A program made the position numbers and the translations under genes. DNA of 64,000 nucleotides, from the IMG/VR virus record IMGVR_UViG_2695420859_000012; one strand, given 5' to 3'. The stretch is from a virus (taxonomy: Duplodnaviria; Heunggongvirae; Uroviricota; Caudoviricetes). This document shows, in pieces, positions 8,178 through 62,992 of the stretch (its first letter is position 1; every line of letters begins with the position of its first letter). The notes beneath the pieces were generated by a model. The model had not been told where the DNA came from. It searched no databases and was given only the letters and a program-made list of their open reading frames with translations.

Positions 8178-8908
8178 GCAGTCACCTCATCAATCTTCAC
8201 GAACTCATACCCATTGGAGGCCAGCCAGTTCCGTTGGCGCTCCCAGCTCCATATCTCTTCACGCATTTCACTATGCAGGCGAATGTGGGCGTCTTCTGGA
8301 AGTGCTACAAGATTCCCAGGGGCGTTATCTATCGTATCGCGGTTAATATGGTGGACATGTTCATCGTCACGTAGCTCCCGACCGAGACGTTCTTTCGCTA
8401 TCAATCGATGAACGTATTCGTATTGCGAAACGCCATTGTTACCAACCAGCTGCATCATGTAGCCGTTGGTTTTTACGATGATGCCACCTTTGTAGTTGTT
8501 CGCTTCTTCTCCGATCTTTCCGCGTTTGGCAGCCGCCAGCTTTTCCTTCGTCTCCGCGCGGATTGTTCTGCCGGTTAGCTTTTTCGAAACGGTGGCCACT
8601 CGCTCATCGATATCAGCACGCAGACCGGCATTCCACGAGGTTTTCCCATACATAGGGTTGCCAGTGCCAGTCCGGGCTTCGGAGAGACGCTTCATACGTT
8701 CGTCATTATTTTTGTTTTTGCCACGATTCCAGGCTGGGGTAGCGGAGATCCGCGCGCTTCCGCGCCTGATCCCCCATTTGGCTAATAAGCGGTCAATATT
8801 TGCCTTGCTGCAACCAGCTTCGGCGGCAATGTCTTCTTTTCTCATCAGGTCAACCATGTAACGCTGACGTAACCATTCTTCTGTGATTTTGTACTTCGTA
8901 CTCGGCAT
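8174..8908 (-). CDS. HNH homing endonuclease inserted within dnaE
   Basis: HNH motif EHVHHINRDTIDNAPGNLVALPEDAH; separate frame and start. Confidence 0.8.
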   Translation of the reverse strand: MPSTKYKITEEWLRQRYMVDLMRKEDIAAEAGCSKANIDRLLAKWGIRRGSARISATPAWNRGKNKNNDERMKRLSEARTGTGNPMYGKTSWNAGLRADIDERVATVSKKLTGRTIRAETKEKLAAAKRGKIGEEANNYKGGIIVKTNGYMMQLVGNNGVSQYEYVHRLIAKERLGRELRDDEHVHHINRDTIDNAPGNLVALPEDAHIRLHSEMREEIWSWERQRNWLASNGYEFVKIDEVTA

Positions 8909-8956
8909 TTCTAAGACTCACTAAACAAATTGTTTTCTTATCTTATAAATTAATTC

Positions 8957-14940: not shown

Positions 14941-15038
14941 GGCTAATCCTTTGTTATGAAAACAAATTATTTACTAGTGTGTTTAATGTAGCACTGCGCG
15001 AATAGGGAACTAAGCCATTCGCGCAGGGAGAAGAGGGG

Positions 15039-17085: not shown

Positions 17086-17118
17086 AATGATTCCATACAT
17101 AGTAGGTATGGAATCATT
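17086..17118. other. Candidate recombination core site: 13-bp inverted repeats flanking a 7-bp spacer
   Basis: AATGATTCCATAC (17086-17098) / ATAGTAG / GTATGGAATCATT (17106-17118); arms are exact reverse complements; 130 bp upstream of the recombinase start. Confidence 0.45.
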
Positions 17119-19914: not shown

Positions 19915-19990
19915 TTGGTGCCGGTTAACGGACTTGAACCGCTGGCCATTCGCTTACAAAGCGACTGCTCTACCAACTGAGCTAAACCGG
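19915..19990 (-). tRNA. tRNA-Thr (anticodon UGU), CCA encoded
   Basis: Own cloverleaf: acceptor GCCGGUU/AACCGGC, anticodon loop UUUGUAA, T-loop GGTTCAAGTCC; 76 nt. Confidence 0.65.
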
Positions 19991-19994
19991 CAAT

Positions 19995-20081
19995 TTGGTG
20001 GGGAGTGATGGAGTCGAACCACCCGAGTCGCCATGACAGTAGATTTACAGTCTACACCGCTACCTCTACGGACTAACTCCC
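19995..20081 (-). tRNA. tRNA-Tyr (anticodon GUA), type II, CCA encoded
   Basis: Acceptor GGGGAGU/ACUCCCC, anticodon stem GUAGA/UCUAC with loop CUGUAAA, long variable arm. Confidence 0.7.
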
Positions 20082-20086
20082 CTAAA

Positions 20087-20161
20087 TTGGCGATGGTGGG
20101 TGGATTCGAACCACCGACCAGTTGGTTAACAGCCAACTGCTCTACCGCTGAGCTACACCAT
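20087..20161 (-). tRNA. tRNA-Asn (anticodon GUU), CCA encoded
   Basis: Acceptor GAUGGUG/CACCAUC, anticodon stem GUUGG/CCAAC with loop CUGUUAA, T-loop GGTTCGAATCC. Confidence 0.75.
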
Positions 20162-20430
20162 CAATTCAGCACTGCCAGTATTTATTACTCAACAGTGCCA
20201 ATCGCGACGGTTTAGTTTCTGCCAGGAAACGCACCGCTACTTGCACTTTTCGTTAGTGCCAGACGCTTTCGACTTCGCTCAATAGTAGAAGGCAAAATCT
20301 TTAAGTAGATGATGTTTCTGAGGACAGCACCTACTTTGTAATTTATACAATGTGATGTATGGAATCATTTGTTGTGAAAACAGGCACCAATGGCAACAGT
20401 GGTTAAACCTACACAACAATCCCGTCTTCA

Positions 20431-24923: not shown

Positions 24924-25156
24924 GTTGGCTTCCCTTTATTTATATTTATCGCAGGTATTAGTTAATCAAAACACGAGCAGTGCCACAATAATTAAATGGC
25001 GTACTATTTCTTATGGTTATTAGTTTCCTAGTAACTTTACCGACCATAAACTAAATCAACAAAGCTGACATATTAACTAAATTTAAGTACCATTTTTCGC
25101 ACACTTGACACTTGCCGCGTCTAAACTGTTCATCCTATATCAACAGAACAAAAAAT

Positions 25157-26302: not shown

Positions 26303-27547
26303 TGCTGCTATGCCTTTTACCTTGCTTAAAAGTTCAAGCTGTCGTGAGTAAGGTTTTGCGCAATAGTAGGCTTTGATAATCTGCCCCGGGGTCGCATCGC
26401 CGGGGTCGAGTCCTTCCTCGCCCAAACATGCAATTTTCACATTAAGACCGATACTGGTCAGTCGCCTGGCTGCGGCCATAGTGTTTCGTATAGCTTGCTT
26501 TTCACTATCCCACATCATGATCACATTACGTAATCCACGCGCCTTGAGCGTCAGGAACGCGCCCAACTGATCTTCTGCATCCTGAGTGGTGTTACCAGAT
26601 AGATGCATCCCGAACGTTCCTATTGGTTCCACGTAATCGCGTAATGTTTCTTCGTCAAAAATAGCTCGTTTGACCCCCATAACATCGAACGCCCCCTCAC
26701 AGACAACTACAGTCTGTTTGCCGACTGCATTGTGGCCGTTGTAGAGAAACTTACCTGAAGCTGGAAGCTGCATAGGAAAGAGGTAGCGGCGTTCTGCTGT
26801 ACCGGTAATGTCTCGTCCTTGAAATGTCTTCATTACCCCATCCAGATCGTAAACCGGTATCAGTATTCGCATATCGAAAATCTGTCCTTTAACCTGATCT
26901 GTATACGGATCTACATAAGCGTGCTTGCCTTCGACGCAGTATCGTAGGTCAAAATACTTTGCCATTTCAGGCGATATATTTCGTTCAACCAGATAGTCTG
27001 GAAGATGGCCATCTATAGGAAGATCGTAATGACGAGGGAGTGCAACTGGTCCCTCTAACTCGACTGTGCTTGCAAGCACTATCTCTTCTTTCTTTGGTGC
27101 CCACCCCTGGGAAAGAAGAGCGTTCTGCACATATTCCTCGAACTGTCGTCGTGATTTACCGCTGTAGTGCTTGAGGAAGACCAGCTTATTGAACTGAATC
27201 TCTTCGGGATGATCACCAGCGAAGCATTTACCGACGCCACTGGTCAGATTGAAATATACCTTCCAGTTGGAGCTGCCGCATACCGGACACTCCTTGATAT
27301 TCACTTCACGACCGCGAGTACTCACGCCTCCACGTCGATAAACGATACCTTCAGTATCCAACCATTGTTCAAAATCTAATTCGGTAATTAGCTCTTTCAG
27401 CTCGCTCACGATAATTCCACTTTTAACAGGCAATATTGTGACCAACCTAAATGTTGATATAACATAAAGGCTCATGTGTTTTTCTTTTGTGGTTTGGCAA
27501 AAGAAAAGTTGTTTCACCAATGAATCAAGCGTGGAGGTGTTCTCCAC
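26294..27547 (-). CDS. DNA primase (zinc finger + TOPRIM)
   Basis: CPVCGSSNWK...CFAGDHPE; TOPRIM-like VVVCEGAFDVMGV with downstream acidic residues; follows helicase gene. Confidence 0.7.
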   Translation of the reverse strand: MENTSTLDSLVKQLFFCQTTKEKHMSLYVISTFRLVTILPVKSGIIVSELKELITELDFEQWLDTEGIVYRRGGVSTRGREVNIKECPVCGSSNWKVYFNLTSGVGKCFAGDHPEEIQFNKLVFLKHYSGKSRRQFEEYVQNALLSQGWAPKKEEIVLASTVELEGPVALPRHYDLPIDGHLPDYLVERNISPEMAKYFDLRYCVEGKHAYVDPYTDQVKGQIFDMRILIPVYDLDGVMKTFQGRDITGTAERRYLFPMQLPASGKFLYNGHNAVGKQTVVVCEGAFDVMGVKRAIFDEETLRDYVEPIGTFGMHLSGNTTQDAEDQLGAFLTLKARGLRNVIMMWDSEKQAIRNTMAAARRLTSIGLNVKIACLGEEGLDPGDATPGQIIKAYYCAKPYSRQLELLSKVKGIAALV

Positions 27548-27556
27548 GCTTATTTT

Positions 27557-28897
27557 TTAGGTAACGTCTAAGATTCGCTCAATGAAGCGCATTTGTTCGA
27601 GGTTTTGTTTAACGCGAATGCTGATCCCTCCCTGCTGGTTACGCGAACCAGCAAAGTAGAGACGAGCCTCTCCTTTCGCTTCTTCTTCTTCGGTTTTGTT
27701 GATCGTTATTACCAGGTCAGCAATACGTACTTTTTCGATGTTGTCGGCAGCGTGCATCATTGTGGCAACTTCTGACGCGCCACCTTCACGGTTTGTTTGC
27801 GACGCCGTGATACCAGCAACGTTATGCTTGTCATAAAGAGCACGTAAATCGGTGTAGATACTACGAATGTTGGCGCGATCATCACGAAGGTCATAACTGG
27901 CACGCATCAAATCTGCGTAGTCGACAACAACCATGTCAGGCACCATGCCATTGGCTTTCATACTGTTAAGCATACGGTCCAGATCTGCCGGTGACATACT
28001 TCCTGACGGACGCTCAACAACCCACAAACTACCAATCCCCTTCGTGGCTCCCAACTCTGCCAACTTGCGATGAACTTCATCGCGCCGTTCCACCAGCTTG
28101 GACATTTCCGTCTCCGACAATCTTGCATCAAAACGGTCGGACAAAATGGTGGTGTGAACCTCCAGCGAGAGATACAGAACATTGTAGCCAGCAAGCGTAG
28201 CGTTTATGGAAAACTCACCCATTGCGGTCGATTTACCGGATTTAGCAAAACCCATGAAGAGCACCATTTCGCGCTTTGCCCAGCCTTTTTGGTACAGCAA
28301 TCTATCAAGCAGAGGGAGTCCAGTTGTAATGCTGTTTGGCACATACTCCTCTGAAGCCTCATATTCACGCGCTTTCAATCGCTCACTTGCGGAGGTGTAG
28401 TAGTCATAGATTCCGGTCGCTTCGTTCGAGCCTATCTGCTGAACCTTGGCCATGATTGCCATCGCCCCCTGAAAGTCGCCCTTCTCTTTCAGTTCAGCAG
28501 CTTTAATCAGAGCATCATCAAACGCTACACTTTTTGCGAATGTGGATACCTGGTCAACCATGTACGAGGTATCAGACAATTTTTCTGCAAGGATGCGCTT
28601 AAACGCAGCAACAACATCCGGGAAGAGTTCCTCACGGATGGTCTTATCGCGTTTCGCACGCTTAAGCATATCCAGAATCGCAGATGAAGAAGGCGCGCTC
28701 TTGTACATACGGTAATAGCCCGAAACCATATTAACCAATATGGCATTGGCCGCATTGGCAAATTGGCTAGGCACAACCAGATCTCCCGCACGAGTAAGAA
28801 ACTCGTGATCACGACAAAAATATGCCGTCAGTCTGTTCTGGAAATCTTCATCAAACTCTTCGGACAGCCCGCGTCCTGTATGGCAAAGTTCGGTCAT
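27557..28897 (-). CDS. Replicative DNA helicase, DnaB-like
   Basis: Walker A FMGFAKSGKST; ADLVITINK strand. Confidence 0.75.
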   Translation of the reverse strand: MTELCHTGRGLSEEFDEDFQNRLTAYFCRDHEFLTRAGDLVVPSQFANAANAILVNMVSGYYRMYKSAPSSSAILDMLKRAKRDKTIREELFPDVVAAFKRILAEKLSDTSYMVDQVSTFAKSVAFDDALIKAAELKEKGDFQGAMAIMAKVQQIGSNEATGIYDYYTSASERLKAREYEASEEYVPNSITTGLPLLDRLLYQKGWAKREMVLFMGFAKSGKSTAMGEFSINATLAGYNVLYLSLEVHTTILSDRFDARLSETEMSKLVERRDEVHRKLAELGATKGIGSLWVVERPSGSMSPADLDRMLNSMKANGMVPDMVVVDYADLMRASYDLRDDRANIRSIYTDLRALYDKHNVAGITASQTNREGGASEVATMMHAADNIEKVRIADLVITINKTEEEEAKGEARLYFAGSRNQQGGISIRVKQNLEQMRFIERILDVT

Positions 28898-28940
28898 GTG
28901 CTTTCCTTTGTTTTTTAAACAAATTGTTTTCTAGTATTAG

Positions 28941-29681
28941 TTAATTAGATAGGGGATCAATAAACCGCCGTGCTTCTTCCAGTTCTTCTGGAAAGTGGGC
29001 GGAAATAAGGCGCTCTGGAACGATTTCCATTAGCCAGATAGCGGAGAAAATTGCGCGTATGCGCTTGCTGCGGGGGATGGTGCGTAAACGCTCCAGAATC
29101 CACTCAAAATAGCTTTCCTGGATCGGGTTGAACTGCATGTCTCCCATATGCTTAAAGCTAACTAGAGAGTCATCCAGACGGGTTGTTGCGCGTCTGGCTA
29201 ATTTCTCTTCGAATATCTCAACCAGCTCTGGCTGCCATAAATGCTGTGGGCGCGGCAGCTTGTCCCACAGCCGTCGTGCAGCTGCGGAAAGAACGGTGGA
29301 GATAAAGTAGTCGTATGAGCAGCAATAGCGGTCAGCAAACTGGCGTGCTTTCCATAGAGACGTTTTATTGGCAGTCGACAACTCCTGATAAGGCAGGCGT
29401 TTTAACCCGGTGGTGAACGGAGCTGTTTCAAAGTGTTCGCGACCGTGCGTCAGCATGATATTTGAGTACTGACGTTTGTATGCCTCCGTAAAAAGACAGG
29501 TGGCCATGAGAGGATGCATGTCGCGGTAATCAAACCACTTCGTCTCGAAGAGTTCAGCCTCGTCTTTACAGCGCGACAAACCAATGTTTTCAGCGACCCA
29601 CTTGTCCATAACAGCGGTATTCCACTCTGTCATGAAGTCGTACTGGTCGTTGTCGATGGTATCGAAAAAGATTTGGCTCAT
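28941..29681 (-). CDS. Hypothetical protein, first gene of helicase/primase operon
   Basis: Start moved to ATG at 29679-29681 (AGGTGAG RBS; track ORF starts at GTG 29690); no recognisable motifs. Confidence 0.4.
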   Translation of the reverse strand: MSQIFFDTIDNDQYDFMTEWNTAVMDKWVAENIGLSRCKDEAELFETKWFDYRDMHPLMATCLFTEAYKRQYSNIMLTHGREHFETAPFTTGLKRLPYQELSTANKTSLWKARQFADRYCCSYDYFISTVLSAAARRLWDKLPRPQHLWQPELVEIFEEKLARRATTRLDDSLVSFKHMGDMQFNPIQESYFEWILERLRTIPRSKRIRAIFSAIWLMEIVPERLISAHFPEELEEARRFIDPLSN

Positions 29682-29797
29682 GTGGCTCACCTGGTAGGTA
29701 GTTACTTACTTATCACAATGAGCGGATGATAGCGACTGGTGGCAGTTTTTGGAAGTGGAAACGGAAGGGAGTTGTTCTGGTGGTGTCTTTTAAAAGA

Positions 29798-29852
29798 CCT
29801 GCTTCCGTATATATTTAATAAGTTACTTATTATTTATATATACAGAAGCAGG
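29798..29852. repeat. 55-bp palindromic element, copy 1
   Basis: cctgcttccgtatatatttaataagttacttattatttatatatacagaagcagg; identical to 62647-62701. Confidence 0.9.
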
Positions 29853-29963
29853 CATAACTTGTCGTCTTAGACGCCCAGAAGCTCTACACTTTGAGCCTGT
29901 TAAATTGATTAAAAACTTATGTGTAAAATAGAACGCATTAGTCAGTAGCAAAGAGATGCAATA

Positions 29964-30731
29964 ATGGACGATTTATCGGTATACGCGAGATCATTGGATA
30001 AGGCTAAATACTATGTTTACTGTCTCTATGATACAGAAGACAAGATGAAAAGACCGTTTTACATAGGAAAAGGCAAATCGACTCGTTGTCTCGATCACAT
30101 CAAGTATCCCGATGACTCTCCCAAATCCATGCGGATCAAAGAACTTTTGGCTAATAAAAAATTAGGCATAGATATACTTCGTCATGGTATGGATGAAACC
30201 ACAGCCAAACTTGTTGAGGCGACATGCATCGACCTTATGGGGGTCGGAGAGCTTACGAATAAGGTACGAGGAAGTGGTTCCATGATGGGCAGAATATCAC
30301 TGGACGCCTACCATCACTTAGTGCTGCAAGAGGAAACTGAAATTGCTCCTGAGCACGCCGGTCTTGCCTTCCTGCTAAACAGCACCTACAAGTCAGGAAT
30401 GTCCGCTCTGGCATTATATGAGGCTACGCGTGGCGTATGGGCAAAGGTTCCAAGAGACGAGAATCTCAAATATGCCTACGCTACATATGGTGGGCTGATA
30501 ATGGAAGTTTATCAGATTGAATGCTGGGTCAAAGCCGGTTCTCAGCAGTACTTTACAAGGGATATAGCTCTTGGCCCCGACACAAAACGTTATGAATTTG
30601 TTGGCAGAATAGCCGATGAGCATATTAGAAAACTGTATGTAGGCAAATTAATCAAGAAGCCACCAAGCTACGGTAGCCCTTTTGTGAAGGTTGGGGTGGT
30701 TAGGACTGAACATAGTGTTAGCGCGGCATAA
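29964..30731 (+). CDS. GIY-YIG nuclease-domain protein (possible free-standing homing endonuclease or cargo nuclease)
   Basis: N-terminal YYVYCLYD...PFYIGKGKSTR; about 150-aa unknown C-terminal region. Confidence 0.6.
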   Translation: MDDLSVYARSLDKAKYYVYCLYDTEDKMKRPFYIGKGKSTRCLDHIKYPDDSPKSMRIKELLANKKLGIDILRHGMDETTAKLVEATCIDLMGVGELTNKVRGSGSMMGRISLDAYHHLVLQEETEIAPEHAGLAFLLNSTYKSGMSALALYEATRGVWAKVPRDENLKYAYATYGGLIMEVYQIECWVKAGSQQYFTRDIALGPDTKRYEFVGRIADEHIRKLYVGKLIKKPPSYGSPFVKVGVVRTEHSVSAA

Positions 30732-30749
30732 AGCTGACACTGTAGTTAT

Positions 30750-30786
30750 GCATTGGCGCAATGTACGCGCCAATGCATGATTTTTA
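30750..30786. terminator. Bidirectional intrinsic terminator between GIY-YIG gene and parG-like gene
   Basis: gcattggcgc-aatgtac-gcgccaatgc followed by atgattttta. Confidence 0.7.
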
Positions 30787-31811: not shown

Positions 31812-31959
31812 TGGAGAGTTCCCTTTGCGTATATAATTATCGTCTGAAACAACTTGTTTTCTTATATGTGATATAGCCTAAATGCCTACGGCTGTGGTGT
31901 AAAGGTTAAATGGTAGGTGCTGCCTTAGAATTTTTAGGCGAGAATCAATGGCTGTTAAC

Positions 31960-33332: not shown

Positions 33333-33560
33333 TCAGTTCAGGTGCCCCCACTCACACAACCTTTCACCTATCGTATTGTGGATAAGCAACTGTCGCTCCG
33401 TTTCCTCAGTCATAAAATCCTCTCTACTCACATAAATAGGATTTGCAGCATCGCAGAATAGCACGCCTGGAGCCTGCGTCTTAATCACGCACCCATTTAT
33501 CAAACAGCTCGCGATGAACACCAGAGGCATCTTTTTGCCGCACTTCATTAACCGTTTCAT
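33333..33560 (-). CDS. Outer-membrane spanin (Rz1-like lipoprotein), overlapping the i-spanin gene
   Basis: Frame overlapping 33481..33732; internal start MKRLMKCGKKMPLVFIASC with lipobox IASC; start choice approximate. Confidence 0.45.
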   Translation of the reverse strand: MKRLMKCGKKMPLVFIASCLINGCVIKTQAPGVLFCDAANPIYVSREDFMTEETERQLLIHNTIGERLCEWGHLN

Positions 33561-36008: not shown

Positions 36009-39000
36009 TTATTCTTTAGGTGAATTTAACTTCGTTTCAAGCTCCTCAACCCTTTTGGTCAATTGCTGAATATGATGAATGAGTGGTACAACCAAACGCT
36101 CATACATCACTCCTTCAGCGACCATACCATTTGAGGAAATATCTTCTGGAGAATCATTATTTGTTGGTTCACGCCAATGGACATATTGCGGGGCAATCTC
36201 ACCAACCTCTTCAGCAATAAGGCCGTAATACCCCCAATCCTTTCGGTCACCTCGACAAATTGAACGATACCAAACAGGTCTTAATGACAAAAGTTCATCA
36301 GCATATCGATCTTGTAATGTTTCAATATCCTTTTTATAGCGCCTTGAAGAGGTTGAACGCCAAACTGTATTGATACCTGGGTTTGGATCAATGTACATAT
36401 TGGCACCGCTAGTAGTTGTGCCAATATCCCATATAGCAAACCCTCCACTACCGCCTGATTTGACAACCAGTGTTTCAGCAATAATATCCAGGTTGCCACT
36501 ATAGCCTGTCAGTGATGATCTGCTTGCATAGGAACTTAGAAGGTTTGTTACCTCTGTTTTCGTGTAAGCATTAAGGTTAGCCGCAGTCAAAGTTATATCG
36601 GCAGAGCCATCAAACGCCACACCAGCAATTTTCCTTGCTGTCTGCAATTTTGTGGCGGTTGCGGCATTACCAGTAGTGTTCTGATTACCAGTTGTATTCA
36701 CACCAGGGATTGAATCCTTAGCGGTATATACCTGCGCCCACGCTGACCATGCCGCACCTGTGTTATCTCTTCGTGAGCGAATGAAAACTGGCGCATGTGC
36801 ACCGCTCGTACCACTCCAGCCAATAAGCAACTCTCCCTCACCAGCAGCACTCGCACCTTTCATGTGCAATACGTTGCCATACATGGTCGGGTAGCTATTG
36901 TTGTACGCCTCGTACATTTGAATGCCAGCAGTGCCTTGAGTAGAGCCGCTTAACGCCGTAACTCGGCCACGAGATACCAATGTATTAATGTTGATATCGC
37001 CTGAGCCATCAAACTTAACACCATTGATGTTTCTCGCTGTTTGCAACTTCGTAGCTGTTGAAGCATTACCGTTCAAACTACCATTTACGCCACCAGTCAC
37101 ATTTAGTCCATTACCAATTGATACAGCACCGCTGGTATTATTAATTGTAATAGGTCGCAAACCGTTCCATGAACCTAATGTGTCTCCTGATGCTGTTAGC
37201 ATGAAATATGTGTTCGATCCATCATTACGGATAAAGAACCCAAAGCTACCGTAAGCAATGCGGAAACCATTTGCATATTTTGAAATGATCTCGCCAGAAG
37301 ATGTCAAACCTCCAGATAATGTACCACCGGTAAGAGGTAATGCACCGACATCAGAGGCTGTTGGTTTGTTTTTCGTGTTATATACTCTTCGCCATCCCGG
37401 AGAATAATCTGTGCCATTAAATACATAGATAAACTCCGCATTAGTGAGAGCACCAGAGACACTCGTCGTTGTGGCCGTTGTTATACGGATCGTATAATTG
37501 TTTGAGCTACTACCGTTATTAAATACCTCTATAACAGCTCCTGCCAATGGAATAACGCCACAACCAGTTTCACTATTTGGTATGGTTGCACTATTGGCAT
37601 AGGCCCACGCACATCGAGCAATCCATGACTTTGTGTTAAATGCTCCATTATTTTGCAATAACGTCACTAACTGTGCTGTTGTTATTGCTCCGCCATTACT
37701 TCCTGTAGTTAACCAACCAGTAGGAGATGCCGGGCAACCTATATTTGCTGGCGACAAGGAAATATTTGCCGAGCCGTCAAACGACACCCCATTGATAGTA
37801 CGCGCAGTCTGCAACTTCGTAGCAGTAGCCGCGTTGCCCGTTGTATTCTGATTACCAGTCGTATTAACACCTGGCAAATTAATATTCGCAGTACCATCAA
37901 AGCTCACGCCGCCGATAGTTCTTGCCGTCTGAAGTTTTGTAGCAGTTGCAGCATTACCAGTGGTGTTCTGATTACCCGTAGTATTTACACCTGGAAGGTT
38001 GATATTTGCAGAACCGTCGAAACCAACTCCACCGATAGATCTTGCCGTCTGCAATTTCGTTGCTGTACTTGCATTACCATTTAATGTTCCGGTGATCCCA
38101 CCAGTAACAGACAACGGACCTGAAACTGTTCCTCCGGTTGTTGGCAGTGCTCCAATATCTAACGGCGTCGGTTTCTGATGTGTGCTATACATCGTATAAA
38201 CAACACCATCGGTAACGCTGGAAGGCTTACTAGCTGAATATGTTGGCGATGTATAAATAGAAACTGTCGCATTTGCAGTACAATCCCAATGGATATTTAC
38301 ACGAGTCGCATAATTGCCAATCTCAACGTAAATATCATATGTATCGCCGGATGTGTTGATCCAGGCGAAATTCGTTAATCCGACAGCTGTACGCTTCCAC
38401 AAAGCACCTGTAATCCCTTTGGGGTTTCCATTGCCTGCTCGTAGAACCAGTTCTGAAATGCCTGCCTGATGTGGGGAGCCGACGTTGTAACCAGCGCCAC
38501 CAATCAATGCGATGTAAACGATGGAACTCGCTTGTGGCATGGTAACCGTAGCCAGTTTGAACCACCCTGCCCCGCCAGAGAAAGACATCGTTACTGAATT
38601 TAAAGTACCAATATCTTTCGGCGTTAATGTGATATCCGCAGTCAGTGCTTTACCGTTAACTTTTCGGTTAGATGGCACCCTGCTATTCGCATTGTCATTG
38701 GCTGCTTTAACTGCTTTTGGCGTTGCGGCCAGCGATTCACTGGTGCTGTCGACAGCACTGCTAAGTTTCACAACACCTTTAGTTGTAAGGCTTGCGTCTT
38801 CCATCGCAACTGCACCGGCAATCTCTTCAGCACGATCAGCAGCAGCTTCCGCACGGGTCGCAGCGGATTCAGCAGCAGTTTTGCTCTGAGATGCTGCCGT
38901 CGCACTGCCTGCCGCCTCTGTTGCTTTCGTGGATGCCGTCGTGGCGCTGCCCTTCGCTGCTGACGCCTGTCTGGTCGCCTCATCTTTTGAAGCAGACGCA

Positions 39001-40258: not shown

Positions 40259-43200
40259 TTACAGAAGGCCAATTCTTACTCGTAGGACGTTGTTATCGTC
40301 ATAAACGTCAATCCGCTGACCATTTATGACCAGTCGCCCATTACCCCCGCTATTACCGTTGATCTCAAGCGTTCCATTTTTGCCGAACCGCCATCCAGAT
40401 CTACCGCTAACAAAATTGGTAGATTGCAGATCGCCTACTTTTGCATTGGTGATTGTGCCATCCTTGATATACGCACCATTCATATAGGCGATACTGTTTT
40501 CGATAACAAATGGCGTGGTGATCTTCCCGTTAACAGAGTTGACCAAACCAAACCTGTCAGCCTGCACCAAAAACTGAGAAAGGCCAGTGGTGTCGATACC
40601 AAGCGCAATACCAGCAACATACTTCTGCCCTCCGCTCGTTGAAGTTTCCATTTTCAACGTCCACGCGGTTGACACTTTTTTGTTGGTATCAGCAATAGCT
40701 GTTGCCTGCTGTTGAATTGTCGCGGTATTTCCATCCACCTCTGCTTTCAGAGTATCGATTCGCCCACTCAGAGCATTATCTGCCTGCGTTCTCGCTGTCG
40801 TTTCAGTTGTTACCGCCGCGGAAATGTTGGCTGCCGTTTGAGACTCTAAGTTTGTGATTTGAGTCGCCAATGCAGCATCTTGCTCTGTACGCGTTTTCGT
40901 TTCGGTTGCTACAGCCGCTTTAATATCCTCTTTGTATTGAGAGGTCAGCTTGGTGATCTGAGACGACAACGCCGAGTCAGCATCAGTTCGAGCCTGCGTT
41001 TCAACTGCAACGGCCGCACTAATATCTTTCGCTGTCTGTGCTTTTAAACTTGAAACCTCTTTTGTTAAAGCGGTATCACCATCAGCACGAGCCGTTGTTT
41101 CTCTGGCAAGAGATGCCTCGAGATCATTAGCTTTTGCTGTAAGAGACGAAATCTGAGTGGACAATGCACTATCGGCATCAGTCCTTGCCTTTGTCTCTAC
41201 AGCAACCGCTGCGGCAATATCAGTTCCGGTTTGTGCTCGCAGGCTGTTAATTTCTCGTGAGAGCGCCTGGTCAGCACTTGCTCTGGCCTCCTGCTCCTGA
41301 GTGATGGCAGCGGATATATCACCGTCAACCTTTGACTGAAGCTGGTTTATTTGTTTGGCTAACGCAGAGTCCCCGCTTGCTCGGGCCTCCTGCTCACTAC
41401 GTATTGCAGCAGAAATATCATCATCAACCTTTGCCTGAAGTTGGGTGATCTGGCTTGCCAGAGCCGAATCTTCCGTTGCTCGGGCTTCTTGCTCTTCCTT
41501 AATAGCTGCGACGATATCGTTGCTTACTTTCGACTCAAGCTGAGTGATCTGTGTCGTCAGAGCTTCATCGGCAGATGTGCGAGCCTCCTGCTCTGTACTA
41601 ATCGCCGCGCTGATATCTCCTTCAAACTTAGATTGCAGCTGAGTGACACGCTTTGCCAACGCTTCATCGCCATCGGCACGAGCGGTGGACTCTTCCAGAA
41701 TACTGGCCTTAATGTCTTCGCCAATTTCTACGCGAATTTCCTCAACCTTCGTGGCCATTGCAGACATATCATCAGCAAAGGTTTTCTGTGTTGTTGCGAT
41801 CTTCGCGTTATTGACCATCTGCTTGTGCTGGTCTTCATCTTGACGAAGAGCTAGGTCAATATTTGTTTTGGCTAACGCCTCAATGTTCGTAGTCAGTTCT
41901 GCACTGGCACGATCGACCTCTGCAACCGTCTTTTTCATTTCTTCAACGGCAGCGGAGCTTTCCTCTACCGTTGACTGCAACACTTCCAGTTGTTTAGCGT
42001 TTGCAGCATCGCCTTCAACACGAGCCTCGCTTTCCTTAGCAATAAGAGCCGCCGCTTCATCTCTTGCAGCCTTTATTGCCTCGACTGTATTAGCGAGAGC
42101 TTTATCGTGTTCAGATACGGTGTTTTCGATTTCAACAATTGCAGCATCAGTAGCATCAATTTTTTCAAACGCTTCATTGACCTTGTCGATCGTTGCCGAA
42201 ACCTCACCTTTAAGCTCGGTTTGTGCGTTCTCCAAAGCATCGCTACGCTCGTTGAATTTTATTTCAAAACCCGCGAGGTTATCGCTGAACTGCTTATCTA
42301 ATTCAGCTATATCTTCCTTAACGTCGTTTACCGACCCCTCCAAAGATTCGACGCTCTGGTTGATATGCTCATTTAACTCGTCAACTGCTTCTTGAGAGGC
42401 TTTGCTGTTGATGTCCTCAAGCAGAGCCTGACCAAGCTCGGAAGATGTAATTTTGCCAGCCAGGAACGACAGTACATCGCGAGTTGTCGCCTCTGTACCC
42501 AAGTTTGAGTTCGGAGGGCTTAACATACCTCGCTTGTTCGATGCTCGAACCCAGTAATACCACGTTTCGCTATCCCCAAGGCCAGCATGTGTAAAGGTGG
42601 TGCTTGCAGACTCTGCGATCAGTTTCGCCGTATCCAGATTGTTGGTCTGGGATGCGTAAACATTAATGTGATCAAGGTCTACCGAATCTGGATTAACCCA
42701 ATTCAGTATCACATTACGATAGTCTCCAACGGCCGTTAATGACGTTGGTGCATCCGGCGGTGTCATTGTGCCCAGCACCTGATAAACGGTACTGATAATT
42801 TCTGTTTTTTTACCGTTGAATGAAACCGCATACAGTTGGAAGTCGTAGCGTCCATTCTCCGCGACATTAACGATTTCGTATTGTTCTTCGGTTACACGCG
42901 CCGATTGCCAGTTCGATACATTGTTTTCATCAGAACGTCGCCAACTGATCCAATACTCTGGAGATTTCCCTTCCCATGTTGCAGTCAGTTTTACTGACAG
43001 GTTGCCCGGGCTTGAGAGGTAAGTCCCTTCAGTGATTTGCAAATTAGACGGCTTGGAGTAAGTCGGGTCCAATACCGTCGTATTCTGCGGGATAAGCGTT
43101 GCACCATTGTCGATCGCCTCATATTTAGACGGATTGTTTTCAACAGCGGTGATGTCAAAGCTACCCGACGTTTCCCCCTGAGCGATGTTAACGATGCGAA

Positions 43201-45000: not shown

Positions 45001-45591
45001 TTACATAAGCTGGTCGATGGTGATAGAAGAACTCACGACCTGTGAGCCAACTAAAATTTCCTCGCCATAGATAAGCTGTACAGGGTTCCCCTGGTTTGTT
45101 GTGTTTTGAGGTCCATCAAAGTAATAAGAGTTCGAGTTATCCGCCTGCCTCACACTTTCGTTAGTGGCTTGCGGAGATATGATTTGCGCTATACCGCCCA
45201 TCATCAGTGACAAACCGAGAGGCGCAAGAGCGGGCACCCATATCGAGGCAACCATTAATACTGCTCCAACAACCGTCTGAAACCATCCAAAAGCAGATCC
45301 ACCACTTCCTCGCGGAACAGGGGTAATGCGGATTTTTGCAATATTGTCAGACTGCCCCATCATCTGATATTCACTCTCGTCCACAGACCACTTGTGGCCC
45401 TGTTTATTGGTGATCTGGATGTGGTATCTGTCATAGGTTTTGATATTGCGCTTCATCCATGCTTTAAACCCAGGCTTGTTGGCCTCAATTAAATCCAGAG
45501 CCTGTTTTGTATTACGCACCTTTAGATGCCAGTGGCGGCCAAAATGTTTGGCCATAGGGCCGCCAAGCTGCACATGAACTAACTCAGACAC
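45001..45591 (-). CDS. Tail assembly protein (gpI-like)
   Basis: Gene order M-L-K-I-J; C-terminal hydrophobic segment. Confidence 0.6.
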   Translation of the reverse strand: MSELVHVQLGGPMAKHFGRHWHLKVRNTKQALDLIEANKPGFKAWMKRNIKTYDRYHIQITNKQGHKWSVDESEYQMMGQSDNIAKIRITPVPRGSGGSAFGWFQTVVGAVLMVASIWVPALAPLGLSLMMGGIAQIISPQATNESVRQADNSNSYYFDGPQNTTNQGNPVQLIYGEEILVGSQVVSSSITIDQLM

Positions 45592-46403
45592 GTCTCATCT
45601 CCCTTGAGCAAGTCTCTGTGACGCAAGTGATGCGTCGTATGTTTCTGATACATTCCGCCGTAATAAGCACGACAACTTAGGCGGTCGATCTGGTGATGAA
45701 GAATCATTCCATCGCCGATATAAACCGCGCAGTGGTCAGGCATTTTCCCGTATTGGATAAAGAATACGTCCCCACGTTGAGGCTCTGTTCCGGGCGCAAG
45801 ACGCACCAATCCCTCGTTACGGTAGTTCTGATCGAGAATGTCGTTATCGCCGGTGTACCACGATGGAATATGCAGGTGTGCGTTCGGGTTTAGTTCGACG
45901 TTAAACTCACGCTTCAAATAGTCCCGACACAACATCCAGCAATCAAATACGCCAAATACATACGGTCTGCCCAGGTATGGCATTTCGAAACCATCAGGTG
46001 TGATCACATTCATCTCGCTAAAATGGAAAGGGGCATCTCCCTCAACATTCTTGCGAATAGCCAGAATCATCCACGGAACTTCCGTCGCTTCGCAGCCTGC
46101 ACGATCGGCATCAGATGCTTCTGCTGATTCATCAGTATGTGAATGCCAGATTGCGATAACATCACCCGCATCCTCTGCCGCCATAATGTCGTCAACGTGC
46201 ATTACAAAAGTGTTCTGCGGGTTCTCCGAAACATTCCGCGCTTCCATAAAGCGATATTTGTCGCCATTAGTTCTAACCAGAAAGCCACACGCTTCATTAG
46301 GGTAGCGATTTATGGCGCAGAGATAGATTTGCTGCATAACGTCAGAGCCAAGCTCAGGGATTGCTTTATTACCCATACCGCGTAGCTCCAATAAATCCGC
46401 CAA
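45579..46403 (-). CDS. Tail assembly protein (gpK-like, JAB/MPN + NlpC/P60-type)
   Basis: HSHTDESAEASDADRAG metalloprotease-like motif; position between gpL-like and gpI-like. Confidence 0.6.
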   Translation of the reverse strand: MADLLELRGMGNKAIPELGSDVMQQIYLCAINRYPNEACGFLVRTNGDKYRFMEARNVSENPQNTFVMHVDDIMAAEDAGDVIAIWHSHTDESAEASDADRAGCEATEVPWMILAIRKNVEGDAPFHFSEMNVITPDGFEMPYLGRPYVFGVFDCWMLCRDYLKREFNVELNPNAHLHIPSWYTGDNDILDQNYRNEGLVRLAPGTEPQRGDVFFIQYGKMPDHCAVYIGDGMILHHQIDRLSCRAYYGGMYQKHTTHHLRHRDLLKGDETCLS

Positions 46404-47485: not shown

Positions 47486-47527
47486 CTCACATCCTTGTGA
47501 GACTGCCCCGGTCGGGGCAGTCGATAG

Positions 47528-56191: not shown

Positions 56192-56235
56192 AACGCTTTC
56201 TCTCCACTTGGGCGGCGAAAGCCGCCCAATATCGG

Positions 56236-60640: not shown

Positions 60641-61897
60641 CTATCGAGAACCACCAAGAATAACACGGTTTTTGACTGGATACCTACGATGTACTGGATA
60701 GCCCAATGCGTCTGCACTATGCTCAATGCCACCTGTCTTATCCATATCTCGTGTTCCAGGCTTGTAGATGACTTTTTCCAGTGAATCAATCAAATGCTTG
60801 CACTTCGGATCGATATACAACCGGATATCTCCAGATGCGGTCATCAGCATTCGGTTAACAGCATTAACACGATCCGCAATTGGCGGGTGCTTTTTCGAAT
60901 AATCGACACGTAAGAATCCCTTCTCTTTGAATATGTCGACGTCAGACTCCCCGCGAGCATGTTGGCGATAAGCACCTGCCGGATCTGGAAATACCGTTAT
61001 CTGTGATTTCCAGCGCCAGAAGCGTCTCTCAAGCTCATCACAAACCTCTGCCGTGTTAGAGGAAAAGAGCACCAATTCATCAATTGCCCATAGCTCACCA
61101 TTTGGCTGAGGTTGCAAAATTACTGAAGACATCGGGTCAATGTTGAAGTCCTGCCCTACCCATATAGGCAACCGAGGGTTGAACTGAAGCGGTTTTACAT
61201 GCACGTTACGATCGAACGGGTAGTAAACGCGCCCGGACATGTTCTCAAAGCTCGCCAGGTACTCCTGAGCGAACGATTTCGGGTCCATATCGTTCTTAGC
61301 AGCTTCAATTTCCGCCGTAGGCACAAACGGAGAATCGGCAGTTACAAACTGCCAGCTCTTCCACTGTCCCTTTCTTTGCAGCTCTACGTTCTGGCCTATA
61401 GTCCACAGTTTGTGAAATTCCGAGAAACCTTTTGGCGTACCAATGATAAGTGCACCGCCGCGTGTCGATGAAAGAGTAGGTCGTAACACCTTGTACCAGG
61501 TGTCAGCCTTCATATCCTGAAATTCATCAAGCACTACAAAATGCAACGCTACGCCGCGCAGAGTGTCAGGCTTATCAGCACCTTTGAGGGCGATCTCCGA
61601 ACCGTTCTTCAACACGATTGTCATCGTGGTGTCGTTCTTTTTCCTAACCCACTTACGAGGCAGAACTTCCTGTAGATCGTCCCACAAAATCTGGCGAGCC
61701 ATCTGGTAAGTAGGAGCGACATACCAGACCCTTTGCTTTTTTTCCTTTGCCGCCGCACGAATAATAGTGGAGATCGACAACCGGGATTTTCCCCAGCGTC
61801 GACCAGCACAAACAACTTTAAATCGATGCGGAGACTGGAAGACTTTCATCTGTCCAGAATGCAGTTGCACAAGACTGAGCGAGGACGGGATTGCCAT
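60641..61897 (-). CDS. Terminase large subunit
   Basis: Walker A VVCAGRRWGKS, Walker B VVLDEF; nuclease-region acidic residues. Confidence 0.8.
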   Translation of the reverse strand: MAIPSSLSLVQLHSGQMKVFQSPHRFKVVCAGRRWGKSRLSISTIIRAAAKEKKQRVWYVAPTYQMARQILWDDLQEVLPRKWVRKKNDTTMTIVLKNGSEIALKGADKPDTLRGVALHFVVLDEFQDMKADTWYKVLRPTLSSTRGGALIIGTPKGFSEFHKLWTIGQNVELQRKGQWKSWQFVTADSPFVPTAEIEAAKNDMDPKSFAQEYLASFENMSGRVYYPFDRNVHVKPLQFNPRLPIWVGQDFNIDPMSSVILQPQPNGELWAIDELVLFSSNTAEVCDELERRFWRWKSQITVFPDPAGAYRQHARGESDVDIFKEKGFLRVDYSKKHPPIADRVNAVNRMLMTASGDIRLYIDPKCKHLIDSLEKVIYKPGTRDMDKTGGIEHSADALGYPVHRRYPVKNRVILGGSR

Positions 61898-62529
61898 TAT
61901 TCGTCCTCCCCTTCACTTCCATCATCTGTCGCATCAAATTCGCTTAGAGCTTCTTCTTCCAACGTCTCAAGCAATTCGTCATCGATGATTTCAGGCTCGT
62001 CGTCTTCCTGACGTAATTTCGCCACCTGGGAAGGCGTAAGCTCACCAAATACCAGGTTCGGAATTTCTTCCTCGTCATTTTCCGCATGATCCATGCCCAA
62101 TGCTTTGGACGAAACTTCAAAGCATTTTGCAAGGGTATTACTGGCTCTCTGTAAGCTCTTGAGAGAATCCTCAATCGCCCCTAAAGGCTTACCCTCACGT
62201 TTGGCCGTAGTGACTTCGACCATCACCATCTGCCCCAACGCATACGCCCAGCCGTCATAACGTGTACGACGTTCTTCTATCTTTTCCGCACGGGCTTTAG
62301 CGCGAAGCTCTGCGTCAGATTTAAGAGACTCACGAACCATCTTCCCAACAGAGTCCGCGCCTTTCTCTAATCCTCGCTTTTTGAAATGTCTGGAGAGTGT
62401 TTCACGACGAATGCCGTACTCTTCCTCCAGCTTTGAGAGTGTATATTCGCCTGACGTCCATTTGGCTTCAGCTTCGGCCCACTCCGCTGGTGTCAGGCGA
62501 GTTTTTACCTCGTCTTTTTCGACCGTCAT
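61897..62529 (-). CDS. Terminase small subunit
   Basis: 210 aa upstream of TerL with ATGA coupling; HTH-like N-terminus; acidic C-terminus. Confidence 0.6.
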   Translation of the reverse strand: MTVEKDEVKTRLTPAEWAEAEAKWTSGEYTLSKLEEEYGIRRETLSRHFKKRGLEKGADSVGKMVRESLKSDAELRAKARAEKIEERRTRYDGWAYALGQMVMVEVTTAKREGKPLGAIEDSLKSLQRASNTLAKCFEVSSKALGMDHAENDEEEIPNLVFGELTPSQVAKLRQEDDEPEIIDDELLETLEEEALSEFDATDDGSEGEDE

Positions 62530-62646
62530 AGATCCCTCTAAAACACACAGAGCGCGTCCATGCGCTCTAAAACAACTTGTTTACTGCATTTTCTAACCAA
62601 CTTGTTTTCTGGGTTGTTTAATTAGGTCTGGGCATGTCTTATTAAG

Positions 62647-62701
62647 CCTGCTTCCGTATATATTTAATAAGTTACTTATTATTTATATATACAGAAGCAG
62701 G
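62647..62701. repeat. 55-bp palindromic element, copy 2
   Basis: Identical to 29798-29852; between terS start and the 88-aa gene. Confidence 0.9.
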
Positions 62702-62725
62702 TCTTTAAATAAGCTCCCAGACCGA

Positions 62726-62992
62726 TTACATCACCAGTAACTTCGCTTTGGCTCGACCTAAAGTGGTTAACCCAAGAGTTCGGCGGTGATAGCGATTGTC
62801 ACTGCGTTGGCGCGTATGCCCTTTCTCCACAAGCCCCTTTTTTATCAGAGCGCGAATTGAGAACTGGATACTTTGCTTGGTTGTCTTGTACGGCAAAACT
62901 TCAAGCAATTCGTCCAGATCAAGTAGATAACCTCGCTCATAACCGAGATTGAGCGTTTTGATGATGTCCTTTTGTTTATCGGTTAACGTCAT
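62726..62992 (-). CDS. Small basic protein, possible DNA-binding regulator
   Basis: 88 aa, Lys/Arg-rich C-terminus. Confidence 0.4.
   Translation of the reverse strand: MTLTDKQKDIIKTLNLGYERGYLLDLDELLEVLPYKTTKQSIQFSIRALIKKGLVEKGHTRQRSDNRYHRRTLGLTTLGRAKAKLLVM

Follow-up and report, generated by a model that had tools for sequence, protein, structure and literature searches.

A conserved 55-bp palindrome at module junctions of SSU5-like phage-plasmids and its probable role as a terminator-type hairpin

Results

Genes and repeats at the locus

The DNA analyzed here, a 64-kb stretch referred to below as the window, is part of an E. coli SSU5-like phage-plasmid of ~108 kb. We make this assignment because the window matches CMS-2020a, PhiR41_1 and Cyrano, and because a repeated element within it matches SSU5 and Klebsiella phage-plasmids. 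Specifically, the region around the first copy of the element shares 99.5% identity with Escherichia phage CMS-2020a (CP053388.1) and 98.8% with PhiR41_1, Cyrano is related, and matches to the element alone extend to Salmonella phage SSU5 and to phage-plasmids of Klebsiella. The window is inverted relative to the SSU5 record, and nearly all of its genes lie on the minus strand. The initial annotation placed one copy of the element between a replication operon and a GIY-YIG gene, and the other just upstream of the terS/packaging operon; Pfam and PHROG scans bear out this context, and also confirm a ParA-like gene among the neighbors. The genes and repeats concerned are:

27557..28897, minus strand: DnaB-like replicative helicase (Pfam DnaB_C, 3.9e-13; phrog_19)
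28941..29681, minus strand: first replication-operon gene, 246 aa (phrog_2500), homologue of SSU5_038 and CYRAN_31
29798..29852, sense strand minus: copy 1, palindrome at the replication-operon junction, CCTGCTTCTGTATATATAAATAATAAGTAACTTATTAAATATATACGGAAGCAGG
29964..30731, plus strand: GIY-YIG-domain gene, divergent from the replication operon (Pfam LEM-3_GIY-YIG, 5.5e-07)
60641..61897, minus strand: TerL, large terminase (Pfam Terminase_6N, 3.1e-09; phrog_10250, phrog_2)
61897..62529, minus strand: DNA-binding protein of 210 aa, presumed TerS (phrog_867; without a Pfam match)
62647..62701, minus strand: copy 2, palindrome at the terS/late-operon junction, same sequence as copy 1
62726..62992, minus strand: 88-aa gene (phrog_900), homologue of SSU5_130 and CYRAN_123

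The ATG of the 246-aa gene, at 29681, is 116 nt past copy 1. The presumed TerS, whose Cyrano homologue is annotated as the terminase small subunit, is encoded by the first gene past copy 2 (117 nt). A constant spacing to the start codon was considered as a feature of the element on the basis of three genomes (115-118 nt), and was dropped when a wider sample gave roughly 105-121 nt. The GIY-YIG gene fills a hypervariable slot upstream of copy 1, and is missing from that place in Cyrano, SSU5, and many contigs.

A repeat search of the window recovered the 55-nt direct repeat at 29798-29852 and 62647-62701 with 100% identity and an offset of 32849 nt, in agreement with the exact 55-mer, present twice ~33 kb apart, that had been noticed at the outset. 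An exact pair of this length within 64 kb cannot have arisen by chance. Each copy is, as was also noticed, an imperfect palindrome: there is a single mismatch between the two 17-nt arms, which reads as G-U on the minus strand and as C-A on the plus strand. The center is AT-rich and holds the palindrome TAATAAGT-N-ACTTATTA; read from the sequence, the sense-strand center contains TATAAATA. There is no third copy or half-copy in the window, where the 17-nt arm pattern, allowing up to three mismatches (0.15 matches expected), matched only the four known arms, and the palindrome's center likewise had no extra copies at up to three mismatches. The homologues of copy 1 lie at 33458-33513 in SSU5 and 75115-75169 in PhiR41_1, and those of copy 2 at 45582-45636 in PhiR41_1 and 103263..18 in SSU5, the latter running across the record ends.

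The element occupies three fixed positions in one family

SSU5 and PhiR41_1 each carry the element three times, at matching places: (i) upstream of terS, (ii) upstream of the operon that encodes SSU5_038, helicase, and primase, and (iii) between the methyltransferase gene SSU5_088 and SSU5_089. The third of these junctions falls outside the window. Per genome, the two copies away from terS lie 25-45 kb from it. When viral contigs were scanned with an exact pattern, the complete elements sampled (96 of 96) all mapped to these three homologous junctions. Among complete E. coli genomes, 260 of 5426 (~5%) contain the element; of its 1043 places in them, 1041 are on plasmids, mostly of 100-113 kb among those listed. 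The element is therefore specific to the family and fixed at three positions, which rules out a chromosomal REP or MITE. These sites split the genome, nearly all of whose genes point the same way, into co-directional blocks, one for packaging, structure, lysis, and partition, one for replication and nucleotide metabolism, and one that is accessory and regulatory.

The element is kept in members of the family from E. coli, Salmonella, and Klebsiella while its flanks diverge, which upholds the original suggestion of a constrained functional site at module boundaries. Its 16-nt arms (CCTGCTTCYGTATATA) are near-invariant at the three junctions, which are not homologous to one another, and across several host genera. 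Variants are 52-57 nt long with arms 20-25 nt apart, and the AT-rich center is variable in length and differs by junction type. In the E. coli lineage of the window the replication copy bears a terS-type center, other lineages have a separate replication-type center (ACTAAGTTACTTATTATTATTTATAC), and in one other lineage GTATATTAAATAATAAAT is common to all three copies. From this sharing of centers between junction types it follows that paralogous copies are occasionally homogenized, by recombination or gene conversion, which is why the two window copies are identical. The exact identity had been taken as a sign of function; the element is indeed constrained, but the identity of its copies reflects homogenization, not added constraint. 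That the replication and terS copies evolve in concert genome-wide was considered and rejected, as their types assort almost independently (p = 0.13) and homogenization is only sporadic.

More than 10 unrelated upstream contexts are joined ~10-40 nt from the replication-junction 55-mer, and the match to Cyrano, like that to a second CMS-2020a record, stops 3-10 nt past the element. Mosaic breakpoints thus cluster at the element, which may be merely the edge of a conserved block.

Predicted folding and tests of the stem

RNA hairpins formed by the element have predicted energies of -23.7 to -34.1 kcal/mol (z = -5.7 to -10.9), and no shuffled sequence equaled them; the 55-mer alone gives -27.7 kcal/mol and, in an 81-nt context, -34.1 kcal/mol (z down to -10.9). 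The corresponding DNA hairpins, predicted at -12.9 and -15.2 kcal/mol, likewise surpass shuffled sequences by a wide margin. The base of the RNA stem, ~10 bp, is GC-rich (CCUGCUUCYG/CRGAAGCAGG) and contains six G-C pairs, as in a stable GC-based terminator stem. Above it the stem is AT-rich and bulged, and the 24-25 paired positions within the 55-mer provide the double-stranded RNA of at least 20 bp that is expected of an RNase III site.

Comparison among variants was less informative about the stem. Hairpin stability showed no consistent strand bias across 39 distinct variants (p = 0.36). The G-U versus C-A asymmetry, considered as a sign of minus-strand RNA, proved to be a property of the window only: the 39 variants favor no consistent strand, and all four combinations of the asymmetric arm pair are found among them. 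For the ten outer pairs, 96% of the cells in the alignment were paired and double-sided changes numbered zero, and shuffled controls equaled the real alignment. Covariation was therefore set aside as support for the stem, and the hairpin is neither supported nor refuted by it. The majority of arm substitutions break a pair, and the dyad symmetry is held by sequence conservation alone. A self-complementary center, considered as a universal feature, was significant in terS-type copies only.

A simple terminator scan left the element unflagged both in the window and in the corresponding Cyrano spacer, because its stem is long, bulged, and AT-rich. Rfam gave no match at gathering score; the sub-threshold hits were to miRNA-precursor models and one lncRNA model, at 14-26 bits against 55-211.

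T-runs, an outer repeat, and promoter-like sites flank the element

The sequences that surround the two copies include the following:

29726..29754, minus strand: putative sigma-70-type promoter of the replication operon, TTCCAA (29754-29749), 17-nt spacer, TATCAT (29731-29726)
29774..29783, minus strand: 3' half of the outer inverted repeat of copy 1, CCACCAGAAC
29789..29797, minus strand: T-run directly 3' of copy 1, TCTTTTAAA
29874..29881, minus strand: 5' half of the outer inverted repeat of copy 1, CTTCTGGG
62548..62569, minus strand: second, GC-rich hairpin with T-run in the terS leader, outside the repeat; flagged by the scan and abutting the terS ribosome-binding site
62625..62632, minus strand: 3' half of the outer inverted repeat of copy 2, CCCAGACC; pairs with 62714..62723 in the extended fold
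62638..62646, minus strand: weak tail 3' of copy 2, CTTAATAAG, 3 T of 9
62714..62723, minus strand: 5' half of the outer inverted repeat of copy 2, GGTCTGGGAG; starts directly past the 88-aa gene's stop codon

Copies at the replication junction have 5-7 T in the first 9 nt 3' of the hairpin in all sampled contexts but one, and those at the methyltransferase junction usually have 4-6 T of 9, again in all contexts but one; copies at the terS junction have merely 2-4 T of 9. In the alignment, the T-run is kept though neighboring bases differ (TCTTTTAAA, TCTTTTTCT, CTGTTTTGT, and CTTTTTAAG). In SSU5 and PhiR41_1, 23-28 nt separate the start of the element from the stop codon of a co-oriented upstream gene, and copy 2 of the window lies 24 nt past that of the 88-aa gene. 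All three sites in SSU5 and in Cyrano follow a co-oriented gene. Copy 1 of the window has no co-oriented gene upstream, the divergent GIY-YIG gene being there instead.

At all three junctions an outer inverted repeat, (G)GTCTGGG...CCCAGAC(C), surrounds the 55-mer. Its downstream half lies at a distance that varies from 12 to 27 nt, and it sits past the U-run, so that it would be absent from a terminated RNA. A TCTGG word ~20-25 nt upstream of the replication-junction copies is kept in most of the differing upstream contexts. With the outer repeat included, a hairpin of ~100 nt is predicted at -56.1 and -43.3 kcal/mol (z = -10.4 and -5.8), the former for copy 2, with ~40 paired positions for 55-mer and outer repeat together. 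CCAGAC/CCAGAA boxes continue from the outer repeat to the -10 of the downstream promoter-like sites.

Promoter-like sequences are found ~65-85 nt past the element at the replication and methyltransferase junctions. The putative replication promoter is conserved in the alignment (its -10 is TATGAT in SSU5), and its -35 and -10 lie 43 nt and 66 nt, respectively, past the end of copy 1. The promoter scan of the window left this TTCCAA-17-TATCAT site unflagged; it did flag the homologous site of K. oxytoca, TTCAAA-16-TATCAT. Downstream of the methyltransferase junction a promoter-like TAGAAT, TAAAAT, or TATCAT is kept among relatives, and in SSU5 80 nt separate the element end from the -10-like hexamer. 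At the terS junction the scan found no sigma-70-like site, and a AAACAAGTTG box occurs twice. The second hairpin in the terS leader shows compensatory changes among relatives, and an Acinetobacter relative has an equivalent hairpin with T8 ahead of terS.

Terminator-like hairpins at the same junctions of distant relatives

In K. oxytoca pCAV1099-111, whose TerS is ~64% identical, the palindrome is degenerate or absent. Its terS junction has a recognizable left arm and a right-arm-like word, with the canonical terminator CAGAGCACGGCTCTG followed by T8, and at its replication junction the conserved promoter comes after a GC-rich terminator of 13 bp; the scan flags canonical intrinsic terminators at both. 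Another hairpin was read by eye at the methyltransferase junction of the same plasmid. The terS junction of K. pneumoniae pVH1-2-1 resembles that of pCAV1099-111. Farther away, in Acinetobacter pORAB01-1 (TerS ~32% identical), a stop codon is followed by an AT-rich hairpin and T-run upstream of terS, and a GC-rich hairpin with T8 lies ahead of terS. What is conserved at long distance is a terminator-like hairpin together with the next block's own control region, not the 55-mer. Homology between the element's center and a multi-copy Acinetobacter palindrome, TTAGTAAGCGCTTACTAA, was considered and is unproven, only the words TAATAAG/CTTATTA being in common; no further copies of a TTAGTAAGCGCTTACTAA-like motif were found in the window, SSU5, or K. 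oxytoca.

Expression falls across the replication junction of a lysogen

The LF82 phage-plasmid Cyrano, a close relative, has an element variant of 53 nt that lies ~25 nt past the stop codon of the co-oriented gene CYRAN_30 and is followed by TCTTTT. Per-gene RNA-seq of the LF82 lysogen gives 5.2-10.8 'log2p5fpkm' for the co-oriented CYRAN_28-30, which are partition and toxin-like genes, and 2.3-4.2 for CYRAN_31, the first gene past the element, the table minimum being 2.32 (PMC9928086, S1 Table). CYRAN_30 alone is at 5.7-10.4 'log2p5fpkm', and the fall from CYRAN_30 to CYRAN_31 amounts to 2.9-7.9 log2 units and is seen in every condition (PMC9928086, S1 Table). In overnight LB, for example, normalized counts across the replication junction go from 54.6 to 6.2, with a minimum of 4.99 (PMC9928086, S1 Table). 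At the terS junction, comparison of CYRAN_123 with CYRAN_1 shows a small drop (PMC9928086, S1 Table), which fits the weak U-run there, and the methyltransferase junction is uninformative because its upstream gene is silent (PMC9928086, S1 Table). The palindrome with its UCUUUU is the sole strong hairpin in the 193-nt Cyrano spacer, where no other terminator-like sites were found. These data, which are per gene and come from a relative with the 53-nt variant, show that Cyrano transcription, or RNA, stops somewhere within the spacer.

Discussion

A terminator-type insulator hairpin

The position of the element past stop codons, the T-runs that follow it, the terminators of relatives at the same junctions, and the expression drop in the lysogen together lead us to infer that the element is probably an insulator hairpin of the intrinsic-terminator type, a reading absent from the possibilities first listed for it. 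We propose that RNA copied from the end of a block would fold into a long stem with a GC-rich base and an AT-rich upper part, and that RNA polymerase would stop at the replication and methyltransferase junctions because a U-run directly follows the stem. The downstream block would then rely on its own promoter, which for the replication operon of the window would be TTCCAA-17-TATCAT. In the plasmid-prophage state such an insulator would keep the transcription of partition genes, toxin-like genes, and morons out of the lytic operons. The terS copy, with its poor U-run, is probably leaky, and would be backed up by the hairpin and T-run of the terS leader.

Like known intrinsic terminators, the element is a GC-based stem-loop soon past a stop codon, with a T-run at the replication and methyltransferase junctions and the next promoter downstream; relatives have canonical terminators at the same junctions, and lysogen expression drops at the replication junction. 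Unlike them, it has a far longer stem (~25 bp) that is bulged and AT-rich above its base, it is reused at three junctions and conserved across genera, one of its copies has a poor U-run, and an outer repeat surrounds it. Several observations count against termination: the miss by the terminator scan, the poor U-run at terS, the lack of covariation and of strand bias, and the placement of the outer repeat past the U-run. Moreover, arm invariance at three non-homologous junctions and in several genera is more than a terminator needs. That invariance, the outer repeat with its CCAGAC boxes, and the retention of copy 1 beside the divergent GIY-YIG gene are left unexplained by a terminator. The element is real and conserved, and most likely a fairly ordinary piece of genetic punctuation.

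Alternative functions

Because the arms are invariant without compensatory changes, a sequence-specific reader deserves consideration alongside termination. We entertain, tentatively, the idea that the hairpin is a switch point read by a phage-plasmid factor, be it an antiterminator, a protein that recognizes RNA, or one that recognizes DNA as a duplex or a cruciform. If so, the factor would open or close all three junctions at once, coupling the plasmid-prophage state to the lytic program, and the uncompensated arm invariance and accompanying CCAGAC-type boxes would be accounted for. A purely DNA-level site, at which a phage-plasmid protein binds both arms as duplex or cruciform, coordinates the three blocks, and in the prophage serves as a roadblock or silencer, much as mycobacteriophage stoperators or KorB operators act at a distance, is in our view unlikely. 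It would suit the near-invariance of the CCTGCTTCYGTATATA arms at unrelated junctions and in different genera, with substitutions uncompensated, as well as a hairpin stability that, as a DNA palindrome predicts, has no transcribed-strand bias; the CCAGAC/CCAGAA boxes extending from the outer repeat to the downstream -10, the ParB-like and other DNA-binding proteins that the family encodes, and an AT-rich center that would favor cruciform extrusion point the same way. However, the varying arm spacing (52-57 nt in total) puts the arms as much as half a helical turn out of phase, the element ends ~65-80 nt upstream of the nearest -10 without overlapping a promoter, relatives have ordinary terminators at the same places, and the T-runs are unaccounted for. 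No cognate protein came to light, and the small proteins encoded nearby gave no informative Pfam matches. Regulator binding, one of the roles proposed initially, is disfavored in the form of a classical operator because the spacing of the arms varies, in elements of 52-57 nt, and the nearest -10 is ~65 nt off: arms 20-25 nt apart lack the fixed half-site spacing of a dimeric regulator's operator, and 43 nt to the -35 and 66 nt to the -10 leave the element neither overlapping nor abutting the promoter. Mycobacteriophage cluster A stoperators and the KorB operators of IncP plasmids are dispersed repressor sites, 13-bp sequences in a dozen or more copies with known binders. The element resembles them as a short conserved sequence repeated in a mobile element and tied to the silence of lytic or transfer genes, and differs from them in its three copies, its 55-bp palindrome with variable arm spacing, and the lack of a known binder. 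At the level of RNA, the element might serve processing or stability, instead of or besides termination, if RNase III cut the duplex of 55-mer and outer repeat in read-through RNA; cleavage would part the mRNAs of neighboring blocks, with hairpins left to protect their 3' ends, by analogy with T7. The 24-25 paired positions, the ~100-nt hairpin with the outer repeat (-56.1 and -43.3 kcal/mol), and the weak terS U-run, which suits a read-through junction, are all compatible with this, and an outer repeat past the U-run makes sense only in read-through RNA or in DNA. Phage T7 has RNase III sites (R0.3, R0.5, R1.1, and others) that are similar hairpins of ~50-60 nt between gene groups. The near-identical copies at block junctions may recall that layout, both cases having several hairpins between the gene groups of a largely one-direction phage; unlike the T7 sites, the element has T-runs and downstream RNA loss that indicate termination. 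As the variable distance of the outer repeat (12-27 nt) creates asymmetric internal loops, neither covariation nor an Rfam family match was seen, and the drop at the replication junction requires loss of the downstream RNA, beyond cleavage, we judge a processing element to be quite improbable.

Two further groups of readings we regard as very unlikely. One is that the element is a recombination linker or hotspot at module boundaries, a patch of homology or a break-prone palindrome for the exchange of blocks and the uptake of cargo. It would draw on the end of homology to Cyrano and the second CMS-2020a record 3-10 nt past the element, on the more than 10 unrelated contexts within ~10-40 nt of the replication copy, and on the almost independent assortment of replication and terS types (p = 0.13) with copies sometimes homogenized. 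Yet selection alone predicts breakpoints at the edge of an essential conserved block, the T-runs and the position past stop codons are not accounted for, and copies arranged as direct repeats would, if they recombined often, cause the loss of a third of the genome. Recombination at the element is best seen as a consequence, not a selected function. The boundary linkers of lambdoid phages are likewise short conserved sequences at module junctions with clustered mosaic breakpoints; theirs, unlike the element, usually sit at gene boundaries without a palindrome, and the clustering seen here is maybe a by-product. The other group, a pac or cos site, a replication origin, or a promoter within the palindrome, is just as improbable. 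One copy does lie 117 nt upstream of the presumed terS and one adjoins the replication genes, the linear SSU5 GenBank record opens inside the terS copy, and the AT-rich center has TATAAATA on the sense strand. Against these points, the packaging or pac role suggested initially is unlikely because each genome has the element at three junctions and just one of these is near terS. A packaging site is a single site beside the terminase genes at which the ends of virion DNA are generated; two of the three copies are distant from terS, TerL matches Terminase_6N, and a record start within a repeat is what is expected of an assembly break or an arbitrary choice. An origin-like role, also on the original list, gains no support, there being no iterons or DnaA-type boxes by the copies, and the plasmid iterons and rep gene lying elsewhere. 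For an internal promoter, no sigma-70-like site was found in or at the element and no phage sigma factor or late activator is annotated; a T4-late-like promoter at TATAAATA was rejected on the same grounds, the scan giving no match and the annotation holding no sigma or activator gene. An integron attC, an imperfect palindrome after a cassette ORF enclosed by R''/R' core sites (RYYYAAC ... GTTRRRY), was rejected, as the copies at the terS and methyltransferase junctions are not enclosed by such a pair; a phage-integron paper examined for this deals with sites other than those of SSU5. So was a mobile palindrome of the REP or MITE kind, with 2 of 1043 E. coli places off plasmids and 96 of 96 viral-contig copies at the three homologous junctions: REP, BIME, and MITE sequences are also intergenic palindromes repeated after genes, but the element is near-absent from chromosomes, has three fixed homologous positions, and shows no sign of mobility. 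The telRL target of N15-type protelomerases is a 56-bp palindrome, and so is like the element in size, in dyad symmetry, and in occurring in a phage-plasmid. It differs in that the element is present three times and telRL once, PhiR41_1 and related plasmids are circular records, and no protelomerase is annotated; no sequence likeness was noted on informal comparison.

Significance for the SSU5-like family

SSU5-like phage-plasmids are common in clinical Enterobacteriaceae and are able to carry resistance genes; to our knowledge, their transcriptional organization is essentially unmapped. Nothing specific on the palindrome, or on transcript mapping in SSU5-like elements, turned up in the literature searched. 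The three copies mark the limits of three large transcription blocks, and offer a simple annotation landmark for the family. In Cyrano the replication copy stands where genes active in the plasmid state give way abruptly to a silent lytic replication operon. The element is also a candidate strong insulator part, and its copies offer three defined targets for asking how these phage-plasmids silence their lytic genes and still express those for partition and cargo. The wider interest is modest, unless a specific reader of the hairpin turns up. Separately, cargo genes are swapped in and out of a slot immediately ahead of the replication-junction copy.

Leader hairpin and upstream palindromes

Two palindromic elements were found close to gene starts in the window, one in the terS leader and the other at several places:

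62548-62569, minus strand: GC-rich hairpin with T-run, directly 5' of the terS ribosome-binding site
8923-8935, 14960-14972, 28917-28929, 31847-31859, 62570-62582 and 62595-62607: 13-bp palindrome AAACAA-N-TTGTTT, frequently inside AGAAAACAAnTTGTTTAG

The terS leader hairpin carries compensatory changes in relatives (GAGCGC..GCGCTC to GAGCAC..GTGCTC), among which a G-U variant also occurs, and the Acinetobacter relative has an equivalent hairpin followed by T8 5' of its terS. This element appears to be a conserved terminator or attenuator in the late-operon leader; if it is, control by antitermination is implied.

The AAACAA-N-TTGTTT palindrome lies 20-45 nt 5' of several minus-strand gene starts, including those of the helicase, ParA and terS. 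With up to two mismatches allowed, the window holds eight matches, against 2.6 expected, and intergenic regions of K. oxytoca pCAV1099-111 contain the box as well. A regulator of the family may use it as an operator or as a promoter box.

A different palindrome, TTA-TTAGTAAGCGCTTACTA-TAAT, is present in about 30 copies 5' of early and late genes of Acinetobacter pORAB01-1 (CP015484.1; loci L208-L210), for example at positions 25030, 35684, 38541, 80081 and 94113. Its centre lies about 10 nt 5' of a TATAAT-like hexamer, and a -35 element is absent at these pORAB01-1 sites. The whole resembles a promoter into which a palindromic site for a regulator is built.

Sequences around the junctions

Several further features accompany the junctions in the window and its relatives:

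Window 29774-29783 and 29732-29745: CCAGAC, CCAGAA and CCACCAG words
Window 29853-30780, and viral-contig loci: hypervariable slot upstream of the replication-junction copy of the 55-mer
K. oxytoca pCAV1099-111 56264-56318 (6264-6318 of its locus L204) and 108521-108576 (8521-8576 of its locus L205): 56-nt direct repeat
SSU5 NC_018843.1 103263-103299 and 1-18 (SSU5 loci L001/L003): split terS-junction 55-mer

The short words, also seen at SSU5 and K. oxytoca junctions, are repeated between the junction hairpin and the -10 of downstream promoter-like sites, for example in CCACCAGTCGC-TATCAT. The junction terminators of K. oxytoca are flanked by, or made of, CCAGAG/CTCTGG words. The non-palindromic 56-nt repeat, whose copies are 91% identical, stands 5' of canonical terminators at both the replication and the methyltransferase junctions of that plasmid; its 3' end (TTTAAATACTATCYRGAGCMAGG) is similar to the right arm of the 55-mer.

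The slot at the replication junction holds a GIY-YIG-domain gene in the window, a DUF2971 gene in SSU5 and, in Cyrano, the gene CYRAN_30; viral contigs show more than 10 further contexts at this place. Homology between the window and Cyrano stops 10 nt past the 55-mer.

The linear GenBank record of SSU5 opens within the palindrome of the terS junction, 37 nt inside the 55-mer. Rather than a physical end of the DNA, this opening is probably a break in the assembly or an arbitrarily chosen start.

Other hairpins, repeats and tRNA genes

The window contains these additional features:

30748-30778: perfect 10-bp hairpin ATGCATTGGCGCAATGTACGCGCCAATGCAT, between the convergent GIY-YIG gene and 119-aa gene 3' of parA
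27527-27551, 47501-47522 and 56208-56229: examples of further unique GC-rich hairpins
17086-17118: palindrome with 11-bp arms, AATGATTCCATAC...GTATGGAATCATT
41246-41641 and 36577-38078: 99-nt tandem repeat in four copies that share 62-72% identity, and repeats with a period of 120 nt
19919-20162, minus strand: three adjacent tRNA genes

The perfect hairpin is likely a bidirectional terminator. The 11-bp-arm palindrome, possibly the site of a regulator or of a recombinase, is similar to TGTGATTCCATAC..GTATGGAATCACA, a palindrome that K. oxytoca pCAV1099-111 has immediately 5' of its integrase gene. Judged from the gene order of SSU5, both sets of repeats probably fall inside long tail or tape-measure genes.
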